Positions 5,906 through 12,043 of a DNA stretch of 64,000 nt are shown piece by piece. The stretch is taken from positions 344,382 to 408,381 of the forward strand of contig CAVXJS010000007.1 of the NCBI GenBank assembly GCA_963762145.1, written 5' to 3'. Made by a program: the position numbers and the translations under genes. Every line of letters starts with the position of its first letter. Position 1 is the stretch's first letter. Source of the stretch: an uncultured Candidatus Rokubacteria bacterium. Its GTDB lineage: Bacteria > Methylomirabilota > Methylomirabilia > Rokubacteriales > CSP1-6. The notes beneath the pieces were generated by a model. That model was not told the DNA's origin, searched no databases, and saw nothing but the letters and a program-made list of their open reading frames with translations.

Positions 5906-7152
5906 ACCTCTCGGTCGCGATCCTCTCGGTCCACACGTGCCCGCTCGCGGCCCTGGGCGGCAAGCAGACCGGCGGCATGAACGTCTACGTGCGGCAGACC
6001 GCGCGCGAGCTGGGTCTCATGGGCGTGCGGGTGGACGTGTTCACGCGCTCGCAGAACGCCACGATTCCCCGGATCGTCGAGCTCGGGCCGGGCGCCCGCG
6101 TGATCCATCTGCCCGCGGGGCCGGAGGCGCCGATGCCGCGCGAGGCGCTCCACGCCCATCTCGACGAGTTCGCGGCGGGGGCGGAGGCCTTCGCGCGGGA
6201 GCAGGGGCTCCGCTACGATCTCATCCACTCGCACTACTGGCTGTCCGGCGTGGCGGGCCTGCGGCTGCGCGACCGCTGGGGCGCGCCCCTCGTGCACATG
6301 TTCCACACCCTGGGCCGCCTCAAGAACGAGGTCGCGGAGACGCCGGGCGAGCTCGAGCCCGCGCTCCGGATCGACGAGGAGACCCGGATCGTCGCGCAGG
6401 CCGATCGCATCGTGGCCGCCAACGTGGTGGAGCGGGCGCACCTGGTCTGGTACTACGGCGCGCGCAGCGAGCGGGTCGCGGTGATCCCGTGCGGGGTGGA
6501 CACCGAGCTCTTCCAGCCGATGGATCCCGCCAAGGCCCGCGATCTTCTCGAGCTGCCCCCGGATCCGCTGCTGCTCTACGTGGGACGCCTCACGCCCATC
6601 AAGGGCCTCGACACGCTGCTGGAGGCCATGGTCGCGATTCCCGAGCCCGCCGACCTGCTGGTCGTCGGCGGCGAGCACGACGAGCCCGACGGGGGACACG
6701 GCGCCGCGCTGCGGGCGCAGGTGAAGGCCCTCGGGCTGGAGCGGCGCGTCCGCTTCCTGCGCGCGCAGCCCCAGCGGCGGCTCCGCCTGTTCTACGCCGC
6801 CGCCGACGTCACCGTGATGCCGTCGCACTACGAGTCCTTCGGCATGGTGGCGCTCGAGGCCATGGCCTGCGGCAGCCCGGTGGTGGCCTCGCGCGTCGGC
6901 GGCCTGACCACCACGGTGCAGGACGGGGTGACCGGCCGTCTCGTTCCGGAGGGCGATCCGGCCGCGCTGGCCGCCGCCATCACGCCCTTGCTCGGGAGCG
7001 CGGAGGGCCGCCGGCTCGGCCAGCAGGCCACGCGCTGGGCCGCCGAGCACCGCTGGCCATGCGTGGCGGAGTCGGTCTGCCGCCTCTACTCCGAGCTGCG
7101 TCCCGCCGCGCGCGCGCATCTCCCTCACGCCCCCTGCAGGAGCTGGCTATGA
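5902..7152 (+). CDS. GT4 glycosyltransferase, MshA-like
   Basis: SVHTCPLAALGGKQTGGMNVYV, HSHYWLSG, HMFHTL and PSHYESFGMVALEAMACG motifs; GTG start overlaps upstream stop. Confidence 0.88.
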   Translation: MNLSVAILSVHTCPLAALGGKQTGGMNVYVRQTARELGLMGVRVDVFTRSQNATIPRIVELGPGARVIHLPAGPEAPMPREALHAHLDEFAAGAEAFAREQGLRYDLIHSHYWLSGVAGLRLRDRWGAPLVHMFHTLGRLKNEVAETPGELEPALRIDEETRIVAQADRIVAANVVERAHLVWYYGARSERVAVIPCGVDTELFQPMDPAKARDLLELPPDPLLLYVGRLTPIKGLDTLLEAMVAIPEPADLLVVGGEHDEPDGGHGAALRAQVKALGLERRVRFLRAQPQRRLRLFYAAADVTVMPSHYESFGMVALEAMACGSPVVASRVGGLTTTVQDGVTGRLVPEGDPAALAAAITPLLGSAEGRRLGQQATRWAAEHRWPCVAESVCRLYSELRPAARAHLPHAPCRSWL

Positions 7153-8391
7153 CGACTCGAGCCCCCATCGACGGTGAACGGACGGCGTTACGCGTGGCCG
7201 GACCGCCCCCTGGTCGTGGTGTGCATGGACGGCAGCGAGCCGGACTACATCCGACCGCGCCATCGCGGCGGGCGCGATGCCGTACCTCGCCGCGGCGCCT
7301 CGCCGGGCGGGACCGATCGCCTCGCCGACTGCGTGGTGCCGAGCTTCACGAACCCGAACAACCTGTCCATCGTCACCGGCGTGCCGCCCTCGGCGCACGG
7401 GATCTGCGGCAACTACTTCTTCGACCGCGAGTCCGACGCCGAGGTGATGATGAACGACCCGAAGCTACCTGCGCTGCGGGACGATCCTGGCCGCGTTTCG
7501 CGCGCGGGAGGCGCGCGGCTGGCGGTGGTGACCGCGAAGGACAAGCTGCGGCGGCTGCTCGGCCACGAGATGCGCGGCGTCTGCTTCTCGGCCGAGAAGG
7601 CCAACGAGACCACGGAGGCCGAGCACGGCATCGCGGACGGGCTCGGGCTGGTCGGCCTGCCGCTGCCCTCGGTGTACAGCGCCGATCTCTCCGAGTTCGT
7701 GTTCGCGGCGGGCGTGAAGCTGATGGAGTCGGTGCGCGCCCGACATCATGTACCTCTCCACCACCGACTACGTGCAGCACAAGCACGCGCCCGGCTCGGC
7801 CGACGCCAACGAGTTCTACGGATGATGGACGGCTACTTCGGCGAAGCTGGCCGCGCCTGGGCGCCACGCTCGCCATCACCGCCGACCACGGCATGAACGC
7901 GAAGACCGACGGCGCGGGCCGTCCGCGGGTCATCTACCTCCAGGACATGCTGGACGAGCTGGCTGGGCGCCGGCCGGGCGCGCGTGATCCTGCCGATCAC
8001 CGATCCCTACGTCGTCCATCACGGCGCGCTCGGGCTCGTTCGCCACCGTCTACCTGCCCGGAGGGCGCGGACGCCCGGGCGACTTCGGCGGCGCCTGGCC
8101 GGCGCTGCCGGCATGGAGGTCGGTGCTGGACCGGCGCCGAGGCCTGCCGGCGCTTCGAGCTGCCGCCCGACCGCGTGGGCGACCTGGTCGCGGTGTCCGA
8201 GCGCGACGTGGTGCATCGGCACCGCCTGGCCCGCCACGACTCTCGGGCTCGACGCGCCGCTCCGCTCGCACGGCGGCATCACCGAGCAGGGGTGCCGCTG
8301 ATCCTGAACCGCCCGGTCGCGCGGCGTCCCGCCGGAGCGGCGCCTCCGCAACTTCGACATCTTCGACCTCGCCCTGAACTTCGCCGCGTGA
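7149..8391 (+). CDS. phnA: Phosphonoacetate hydrolase (several indels, probably sequencing errors)
   Basis: Across frames: [86 protein letters not shown]. Confidence 0.88.
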
Positions 8392-8440
8392 GCCGGTCAT
8401 GAGCCGCACGCGGGCGACGCGCGCGGCGGCTCTCGTCGCG

Positions 8441-10894: not shown

Positions 10895-10911
10895 GACGAG
10901 AGGACGAGACC

Positions 10912-12043
10912 ATGGACGCGATCCCACGACGAGCCGTTCCTCCTGACCCCGGGTCCGCTCACCACCACGCGGGCCACCAAGGAGGCGATGCTGCGCGACT
11001 GGGGCTCGCGCGACGGGGAGTTCATCGCGATGAACGCGCGGGTGCGCCGACGGCTCACCGAGCTGGTCCATGGGGATGGCAGCCATGTGTGTGTCCCGCT
11101 GCAGGGCAGCGGGACATTCATCGTCGAGGCGATGATCGGCACGCTGGTGCCGCCGGGGGGCAAGCTGCTGGTGCTGGTCAACGGCGCCTACGGGCGACGC
11201 ATGGTCCGCATGTGCGAGTACTACCGCCGGGCCTGCGTGGTCCAGGAGACGGGGGAGGATCAGCCCGCCGATCCGACTGCCCTCGACGCGGCGCTGGCGC
11301 GCGATCCGGCCGTGACCCACGTGGTGGTGGTGCACTGCGAGACCACCTCGGGCGTGCTGAACCCGGTCGAGGAGATCGCGGCGGTGACCGCGCGACACGA
11401 TCGGCGCCTGCTGATCGACGCGATGAGCGCCTTCGGCGCCATTCCGCTCGACGCCCGGCGCGTACCCTTCGACGCTGTGGTGGCCTCCTCCAACAAGTGT
11501 CTCGAAGGTGTCCCGGGGGTGGGCTTCGCGATCGTCCGGCGCGAGGCGCTCGAGGAAGCCCGCGGCCAGGCGCCCTCGCTGAGCCTCGACCTGCACGATC
11601 AGTGGGCGGCCATGGAGAAGAACGGGCAGTGGCGCTTCACCCCGCCCACCCACGTCCTCGCGGCGCTCGACCGCGCGCTGGACCAGCACGCGGCCGAGGG
11701 CGGAGTGGCCGGGCGGGGCGCCCGCTATCGCCGCAACTGCACGCAGCTGGTGGATGGCCTGCGCGGCATGGGCTTCGAGACGCTCCTGCCCGACCGGCTG
11801 CAGGCGCCCATCATCGTCACGGTGCGCATGCCCGCCGACCCGAAGTTCCACTTCGAGACCTTCTATGACCGGCTGGCCCGGCGCGGCTTCGTGATCTACC
11901 CGGGCAAGCTCACGGTGGCCGACAGCTTCCGCGTCGGCTGCATCGGCGCGCTCGGGGAGCCCGAGATGCGCGGGGCGCTGCAGGCCATTCGCGAGGTCGT
12001 CGCCGAGCTCGGTGTCACCTCCTGCGCGCCGGCAGCCGGGTGA
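10912..12043 (+). CDS. phnW: 2-aminoethylphosphonate-pyruvate transaminase (one indel near start)
   Basis: LLTPGPLTT, MLRDWGSRD, HCETTSG, DAMSAFG, SSNKCLEGVPG, QWRFTPPTH and IYPGKLT motifs. Confidence 0.93.

Follow-up and report, generated by a model that had tools for sequence, protein, structure and literature searches.

A dimethylglycine-dehydrogenase-like flavoprotein encoded between phnA and phnW in Rokubacteria: a candidate folate-coupled demethylase for N-methylated 2-aminoethylphosphonate

The window studied here is a stretch of 64,000 nucleotides (G000:C7:344382-408381) from the genome of an uncultured Candidatus Rokubacteria bacterium, termed G000, whose assembly amounts to 6.26 Mb in 25 contigs with 72% G+C and 88% completeness. 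Its forward strand carries, between positions 7149 and 12043, three genes in a row: phnA, a gene for a flavoprotein resembling dimethylglycine dehydrogenase (DMGDH), and phnW. This arrangement is confirmed here; it had been noticed in a first-pass annotation of the sequence, which gave the middle gene about 815 codons with FAD and folate domains and gaps of about 50 and 17 nt on its two sides, while we obtain about 811 codons and gaps of 49 nt (from the start at 8441) and 16 nt. The flavoprotein is best explained as a member of the DMGDH family from a sub-group that appears to be specialised for aminophosphonate catabolism. Strong comparative evidence points to a phosphonate-pathway enzyme distinct from its betaine-type relatives. 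The more specific role, a tetrahydrofolate (THF)-coupled N-demethylation of N-methyl-2-aminoethylphosphonate to 2-aminoethylphosphonate (AEP), which would then be used by PhnW, we hold to be on balance probable.

Relatives outside the genus were collected by scanning one genome per species. The best 80 of them, which are 49-64% identical and stem mostly from Proteobacteria and Actinomycetota, were inspected for phosphonate genes, and a locus was called phn-linked when phnW lay within 8 kb of the flavoprotein gene. According to the first-pass annotation, its proposal would fall if close homologues were not linked to phn genes. Linkage was found in ten of these 80 best loci, seven of which also contain phnA, and a FastTree phylogeny of 101 rows requires no fewer than seven changes of state to account for the linked ones. 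Gene orders vary. Locus L083 reads phnY-phnA-phn_lysR / phnW ... flavoprotein ... PhnU2-PhnT2-PhnS2, locus L028 reads flavoprotein - phn_DUF6 - Na/Pi transporter - phn_lysR - phnW-phnA-phnY, and in L027 (phnC-phnE-phnE ... phnA-phnW) the flavoprotein gene is divergent. In the proteobacterial linked loci, phnY is present as well (778-803 bits; cut-off 635.65), and so are genes for AEP transporters and phn-type LysR regulators.

The linked copies share residues adjoining the active site, which were found by searching the alignment for residues common to the linked groups and rare elsewhere. Position 226, directly after His225, is M or Y in phn-type proteins and F in 46 of 70 unlinked rows, and position 250, directly before Tyr251, is I in the phn-type. 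Position 291 is Q in the proteobacterial phn-linked proteins and K in the window's genus, with A also occurring among signature rows, while 56 of the 70 unlinked rows have H. Q549 and D786 accompany these three residues, and the window's own codons encode M226, I250, K291, Q549 and D786. When M or Y at 226 together with a residue other than H at 291 is taken to define a signature-positive protein, 86 rows divide into 27 positive, 56 negative and three of a type denoted HKQ. All 16 phn-linked rows (ten from other lineages and six from the same genus) are positive, and linkage is absent from all 56 negative and all three HKQ rows, a separation that is partly circular since the columns were chosen by the very label they separate, and the rows are kin. 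The HKQ proteins (L053, L055 and L060, from Haliangiales, Verrucomicrobiota and Kouleothrix) constitute a sister clade with H226, K291 and Q549, intermediate between the phn-type and the others and not phn-linked within 8 kb.

On the level of whole genomes, phnA (TIGR02335, E<=1e-60) was detected in 19 of the 21 signature-positive genomes outside the genus and in two of the three HKQ genomes, but also in 14 of the 56 signature-negative genomes, so that the co-occurrence is not exclusive. Both signature-positive genomes without a match (L021 and L087) are metagenome-assembled genomes, which are incomplete. In Ensifer (L022), the coordinates of phnA fall just beyond the 8-kb flank, apparently on the same replicon.

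An IQ-TREE phylogeny of 49 rows reveals three separate signature-positive groups, as does the FastTree phylogeny. The first is a main clade composed of the window's genus and alpha- and beta-proteobacterial members, with kinase-linked Actinomycetota nested inside; the second consists of L024 and L027, and the third of L083, L087 and L092. A single origin of the signature sub-group was rejected by the approximately unbiased test (p=9e-8) at a cost of 297.8 log-likelihood units; the group had been defined with the tree already in view. Most simply, the residues next to the catalytic dyad would have changed convergently in lineages whose gene entered phosphonate operons.

Could the protein nevertheless be an ordinary dimethylglycine or sarcosine dehydrogenase of betaine and choline catabolism that lies between phnA and phnW by chance? 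Its nearest solved relatives are rat and human DMGDH (E ~1e-157), followed by the dimethylglycine oxidase (DMGO) of Arthrobacter (5e-124). Furthermore, related clades are accompanied by genes for an MTTB-family methyltransferase and a tandem paralogue (six loci), for subunits of the electron-transferring flavoprotein (ETF; five loci), or for OpuAC and GMC oxidoreductase proteins. However, the betaine-type clades show F226 and H291 where the present protein has M226 and K291, and the paralogues from the same phylum (L020, L097-L099) are likewise of the F226/H291 type and not phn-linked. The phn linkage recurs in at least seven groups separated on the tree, and no betaine-pathway gene was found in the operon. 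Chance placement of a betaine-type enzyme thus appears most improbable.

AEP corresponds to beta-alanine and taurine with a phosphonate as the acidic group. This analogy lends some weight to an alternative in which the enzyme demethylates a look-alike N-methyl amine, such as N-methyl-beta-alanine, N-methyltaurine, N-methyl-phosphoethanolamine or the N-methyl form of another aminophosphonate, e.g., hydroxy-AEP, and in which the phn link reflects shared regulation or source material. At L024 and L027, the flavoprotein gene adjoins genes for a CoA-acylating methylmalonate-semialdehyde dehydrogenase and an AptA-type omega-aminotransferase (L024 5800-8675, L027 10881-13708), opposite phnW-phnA and with no canonical phnY in these loci; this setting would equally suit a substrate resembling N-methyl-beta-alanine. 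The nested Actinomycetota clade with its kinase-like genes and permeases also points to the use of other two-carbon amines in the wider clade. On the other hand, the kinase-linked and betaine-type clades do not show the signature, the signature tracks phnW and phnA in three phylogenetically separate groups, and PhnS2T2U2 transporters of the AEP type and phn-type LysR regulators occur in the same loci. We consider a look-alike substrate unlikely.

Concerning the protein itself, the intact 811-residue orthologue of the same-genus locus L003 matches the Pfam domains DAO (residues 7-362), FAO_M (367-420), GCV_T (422-694) and GCV_T_C (719-803), each over nearly its full length, with GCV_T matched at positions 1-255 of 255 (E 2e-83). 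The same domains, together with Phosphodiest and Aminotran_5 of the neighbouring genes, are recovered from the open pieces of the window, and the translation of the window displays the FAD fold with the GTTWHAAG motif that the first-pass annotation had pointed out. No other DAO-GcvT fusion is encoded in G000. All 90 aligned homologues have H46, H225 and Y251. H46 is equivalent to His91 of human DMGDH, which forms the covalent link to FAD (PMC5082570), and H225 and Y251 align with the His225/Tyr259 dyad of Arthrobacter DMGO, whose catalytic role is covered by the available text of PMC5082570 and its reference list. In the alignment, motifs such as LRxEKAxRAWG are common to the flavoprotein and rat DMGDH. 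Comparison of four orthologues of the genus (six pairs) gives a dN/dS of 0.06-0.21 in the N-terminal half (residues 1-420) and of 0.13-0.24 in the C-terminal one (residues 421-811). Since both halves are under purifying selection, the folate module is presumably in use, and a complete folate domain under such selection fits the capture of a methyl group. For the middle protein, no NCBIfam equivalog model scored above its cut-off; TIGR03364 (HpnW_proposed, the PbfD1 family) reached 56.4 bits, below the 285.1 bits required.

The regiochemistry deserves separate consideration. Zangelmi et al. (2023) distinguished three groups among the FAD enzymes of AEP clusters, namely PbfB, PbfC and PbfD. Their NMR data show phosphonoacetaldehyde and methylamine as the products of PbfC and PbfD from N-methyl-AEP, and formation of AEP and formaldehyde was tested and excluded (PMC10590968, available text). 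Demethylase chemistry would be new for AEP clusters because PbfC and PbfD were shown not to produce AEP and formaldehyde. By analogy, the present enzyme might oxidise the C-N bond on the ethyl side and release phosphonoacetaldehyde and methylamine, with its folate module idle or otherwise used. According to the same source, this is the behaviour of every FAD enzyme characterised from AEP clusters (PbfC, PbfD1 and PbfD2), and the altered residues, being neighbours of the catalytic dyad, might shift the position of the substrate. Several observations argue otherwise. GCV_T and GCV_T_C are complete and constrained (omega 0.13-0.24). The DAO-GcvT fusions that have been solved and characterised, DMGDH and DMGO, oxidise the N-methyl group and pass its carbon to THF via an internal cavity (PMC5082570, as far as its text was available). 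phnW is present in ten of ten linked loci; Pbf enzymes, in contrast, are frequently accompanied by phnX only (PMC10590968, available text). One-carbon handling near phn-linked copies is hinted at by two further genes: L016 (Pandoraea) has a PurU-like gene, which clusters with formyl-THF deformylase-like genes (Formyl_trans_N; 11518-12390), after the flavoprotein gene, and L015 (Reyranella) has a gene for a glutathione-dependent formaldehyde-activating enzyme (GFA; 17077-17589) after phnW, phnA and an aldehyde dehydrogenase gene. A cleavage of the Pbf kind is, in our view, quite unlikely here.

The proposed demethylation would proceed as follows. The FAD domain would oxidise the N-methyl C-N bond of N-methyl-AEP, possibly also of the N,N-dimethyl form, and pass the electrons to an acceptor such as ETF. 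The one-carbon unit would travel through the internal cavity to THF and yield 5,10-methylene-THF. The AEP thus released would be transaminated by PhnW to phosphonoacetaldehyde, which an aldehyde dehydrogenase (its identity in this lineage being a matter of inference) would oxidise to phosphonoacetate, and PhnA would finally cleave the latter to acetate and phosphate. The first-pass annotation had proposed a demethylase of this kind. Linkage to phn genes, the signature and the complete folate domain under purifying selection have since strengthened its proposal, while substrate, regiochemistry and THF use are still read from gene context and family precedent.

A number of observations weigh against this role. 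Besides the partial circularity of the signature, the presence of phnA in signature-negative genomes and the gene content of L024 and L027, they concern both the sequence context from which substrate and product are inferred and the pathway as such. L017, L018, L054 and L033 are signature-positive, but their phnA genes are located elsewhere in the genome, hundreds of kb off where coordinates allow a comparison, and the signature-positive gene of L072 is unlinked. Real decay, which bears on the state of the G000 copy, is seen in two sister species of the same genus. In G020 (L095, C101), phnA is intact, the flavoprotein gene has shrunk to its last 35 codons, and the 1.5 kb that remain of the contig contain no phnW; G005 (L096, C146) has intact phnA and flavoprotein genes, and its phnW is reduced to the last 122 codons. 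Finally, no PhnY or PhnX was found, which leaves a gap between PhnW and PhnA in the pathway of this lineage. The first-pass annotation had remarked that phnY and phnX are missing from the window, and a search of the whole G000 genome (88% complete) likewise returned no match above cut-off, the best scores being 238.8 bits against 635.65 for PhnY (TIGR03250) and 36.7 bits against 220 for PhnX (TIGR01422). Among its relatives, PhnY exceeded the cut-off in none of 41 genomes, and none of 25 genomes of the family had a match even at E<=1e-90. A dedicated substitute for PhnY in G000 was looked for and rejected: the best aldehyde dehydrogenase resembles succinate-semialdehyde dehydrogenase, and nothing phosphonate-related scored beside it.

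The coordinates of the features are compiled in Table 1. Gene coordinates were obtained by mapping onto the intact orthologues of L003.

Table 1. Features of the phnA-flavoprotein-phnW region, in positions of the window.
Feature	Position	Strand	Basis and remarks
phnA (phosphonoacetate hydrolase)	7149-8391	+	Mapping to the L003 orthologue; frameshifted in G000
DMGDH-like flavoprotein gene, ~811 codons	8441-10894 (alternative ATG at 8399)	+	Pfam and L003 mapping; frameshifted many times
N-terminal FAD-binding stretch, GGGIIG and GTTWHAAG	8454-8591	+	Translation
GTTWHAAG motif	8565-8588	+	Translation
H46 codon (covalent-FAD His)	8577-8579	+	Orthologue numbering
H225 (catalytic His) and M226 (signature) codons	9119-9124	+	Alignment
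I250 (signature) and Y251 codons	9196-9201	+	Y251 aligns with Tyr259 of Arthrobacter DMGO
K291 codon (signature)	9319-9321	+	Alignment
phnW (2-aminoethylphosphonate-pyruvate transaminase)	10911-12043	+	L003 mapping, tblastn; one private indel near the start, at 10929
Indel-dense patch private to G000	7255-10929	.	31 one-base insertions, 3 two-base insertions, 10 one-base deletions

The identities of the two outer genes are well founded. The PhnA orthologue of L003 scores 602.7 bits with TIGR02335 (cut-off 407.55), and its residues 6-406 span window positions 7165-8379 in a tblastn comparison; the window copy was scored only in pieces, one of which (7174-7893) matches PF01663. The PhnW orthologue of L003 reaches 543.5 bits with NF010006 (cut-off 296) and 483.2 bits with TIGR02326 (cut-off 400.8), and the window's phnW is 92.7% identical to it across 368 amino acids (tblastn). 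The operon itself contains no regulator or transporter gene. The ATG of phnA overlaps the stop codon of an upstream GT4 glycosyltransferase gene (ATGA, 7149-7152). Downstream of phnW lie a Zn-peptidase gene and ATPase genes of an oligopeptide-type ABC system, and the three genes are closely packed among co-directional neighbours. The phn genes may be co-transcribed with the unrelated genes upstream (GNAT, 4910-5905; GT4, 5950-7152).

According to match coordinates, the three genes are adjacent on one contig in 15 of 20 genomes of the genus. The remaining five comprise G017, where the genes are split by contig ends, the decayed copies of G005 and G020, G016 with a fragment only, and G006 (63% complete) with nothing. 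An uninterrupted flavoprotein gene of 811 codons is present in six of the seven same-genus loci that were fetched, and additionally in G005.

In the G000 assembly, none of the three genes reads through. Called relative to at least five of seven same-genus loci, the private indels form the patch listed in Table 1. A stricter count yields 43 private indels of a length not divisible by three within 7149-12043, while the GT4 and peptidase genes on either side are free of them; a remark on indels in the first-pass annotation was therefore correct and understated the extent. One explanation is that the three genes of G000 are real pseudogenes in a decaying operon, which would concern the state of this copy and not the function. 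The confinement of the 43 frameshifting indels to the operon, with intact genes on either side, would suit such decay, and so would the genuine losses in the sister species G020 and G005. Bacterial pseudogenes, however, tend to lose bases and to gather many more substitutions than indels. Within the patch, insertions outnumber deletions (34 versus 10), and substitutions are not in excess, since identity is 0.917 between G000 and L002 and 0.918 between L002 and L003. Similar patches are dispersed over the genome: a hidden Markov model of GC3 phase finds 23 frame switches in the phn patch, where the genome has a median of 6 per 4 kb, a 95th percentile of 20.9 and a maximum of 39, and about 5% of the 4-kb bins of G000 contain at least as many. 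An unrelated stretch of the window (58500-64000) differs from G013 by 54 one-base indels over ~5.3 kb, a pairwise comparison in which either assembly could err. Across assemblies, G000 (25 contigs) has 43 private indels of this kind in the operon and G013 (40 contigs) has 6, compared with 0-1 in each of five assemblies that comprise hundreds of contigs. Because there are no extra substitutions, insertions prevail, similar patches occur genome-wide and the other few-contig assembly is also affected, the frameshifts are most likely assembly errors rather than gene decay, and we regard real pseudogenes as very unlikely. The G000 assembly seems to contain many unpolished stretches, which may also explain its completeness of 88%. 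Runs of soil metagenomes contained at most 0.33 of the sampled words, compared with ~0.74 expected for the same strain without indels, so that they hold relatives at best and say nothing firm about habitat or indels.

Further phosphonate-related genes were encountered in G000. The N-terminal half of a PhnS2-like gene for an AEP-type substrate-binding protein is located at 63535-63990 of the window, where it is cut by the end of contig C7; it is 45% identical to the PhnS2 of L083 and reaches 160.7 bits with TIGR03261 over positions 4-143. Contig C13 opens with PhnT2-like (55%) and PhnU2-like (51%) genes (G000:C13:2027-4761), and the two contigs may join at these genes. As to the synthesis of phosphonates by the organism itself, no phosphoenolpyruvate (PEP) mutase was found in G000, the best match being TIGR02320 with 150.5 bits (cut-off 319.55). 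This weak match, located at G000:C7:336202-336942, ~8 kb upstream of the window, probably represents a different branch of the isocitrate-lyase/PEP-mutase superfamily rather than a gene of phosphonate synthesis.

The neighbourhoods of relatives in other lineages offer some side observations. One recognisable setting of unlinked relatives, mostly from Actinomycetota, combines genes for a choline/ethanolamine-kinase-like protein (15 loci) with those for an amino-acid permease (11) and a GntR regulator (6). The kinase-flanked Actinomycetota clade (L030, L034, L038-L042, L051, L057, L058, L062, L070 and others) is of the F226/H291 type and suggests an uncharacterised route for an N-methylated compound of the ethanolamine type. 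In L061, L066, L068, L076, L081 and L094, a gene for an MTTB-family methyltransferase is followed by two tandem DMGDH-like paralogues, which looks like a cassette for the demethylation of betaine via dimethylglycine to sarcosine. For L015, an N-methylglutamate pathway was considered and rejected, as the upstream genes encode hydantoinase B, a TRAP transporter and a GS-like protein. Several open reading frames called in L016 and L087 had no Pfam match; they are probably in the wrong frame and were set aside.

N-methyl-AEP is common in nature (PMC10590968, PMC12366243), and N-methylated AEP, together with AEP, ranks among the most abundant natural C-P compounds (PMC3266647); it is not processed by PhnW (PMC12366243), each statement being taken from the available part of the source. 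The only published entry route for N-methyl-AEP is oxidative deamination by PbfB, PbfC or PbfD, in which methylamine is discarded. A folate-coupled demethylase, if real, would constitute a second and mechanistically opposite route that saves the methyl carbon as methylene-THF and feeds electrons to the respiratory chain. It would suit organisms that use phosphonates for carbon and nitrogen via the PhnW-PhnY-PhnA branch, and it would provide a specific name for widely spread proteins that reach no NCBIfam cut-off. The sub-group would also be a test case of convergent specificity switching beside a conserved catalytic dyad. M1AEP, M2AEP and M3AEP have already been synthesised (PMC10590968, available text).

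A broader proposal can be put forward, of which we are rather doubtful. The whole clade might consist of THF-coupled demethylases for N-methylated two-carbon amines with an acidic head group, in which a few residues flanking the dyad switch specificity. The phosphonate form would have arisen at least three times, methylated phosphonates would serve as a source of one-carbon units besides phosphorus and nitrogen, and the operon without PhnY and PhnX would imply that phosphonoacetaldehyde is converted to phosphonoacetate by an unrecognised enzyme or by an activity of one of the three proteins.

Enzyme family and pathway are known as such; no account of their combination, of the predicted regiochemistry or of the convergent signature was encountered in the literature searched. 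Nor did these searches turn up a DMGDH-like or folate-linked enzyme from AEP or phosphonate clusters; they did not extend to Tables S1 and S2 of PMC10590968, whose initial set may hold a few such long proteins. In the available text of PMC10590968, the terms tetrahydrofolate, GcvT and aminomethyltransferase have 0 occurrences, and the 2025 paper of the same group lists only PbfA, B, C, D and F in the part available (PMC12366243).

Of the known systems, DMGDH and DMGO (rat 4PAA/4PAB, human 5L46, Arthrobacter 1PJ5) share with the flavoprotein the same four domains, the covalent-FAD histidine, the His/Tyr dyad, alignment over the full length and the expected mechanism of methyl oxidation and channelling to THF. 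They differ in having Q in rat and Arthrobacter where M226 stands here, and Y and L, respectively, in place of I250. Their context is betaine catabolism instead of a phosphonate operon, and where they act on a carboxylate on one carbon, the predicted substrate here is a phosphonate on a two-carbon chain. Chemically, the closest parallel to the conversion of N-methyl-AEP to AEP is MabO, the 4-methylaminobutanoate oxidase of Arthrobacter nicotinovorans. This DMGDH-like enzyme demethylates a carboxylate substrate, an N-methyl omega-amino acid. MabO is also listed as a comparator in the available text of PMC10590968. With the canonical PhnW-PhnY-PhnA pathway, the operon has in common a phnW and a phnA that pass curated cut-offs, but no PhnY was found in the window's genus or family, and regulator and transporter genes are missing from the operon. 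With PbfB, PbfC and PbfD, the flavoprotein shares its position as an accessory PF01266 protein beside phnW and phnA that presumably widens the pathway to N-methylated AEP. Unlike it, the Pbf enzymes yield phosphonoacetaldehyde and methylamine and bypass PhnW, and a folate module such as that of the present protein is not mentioned for Pbf in the available text of PMC10590968.

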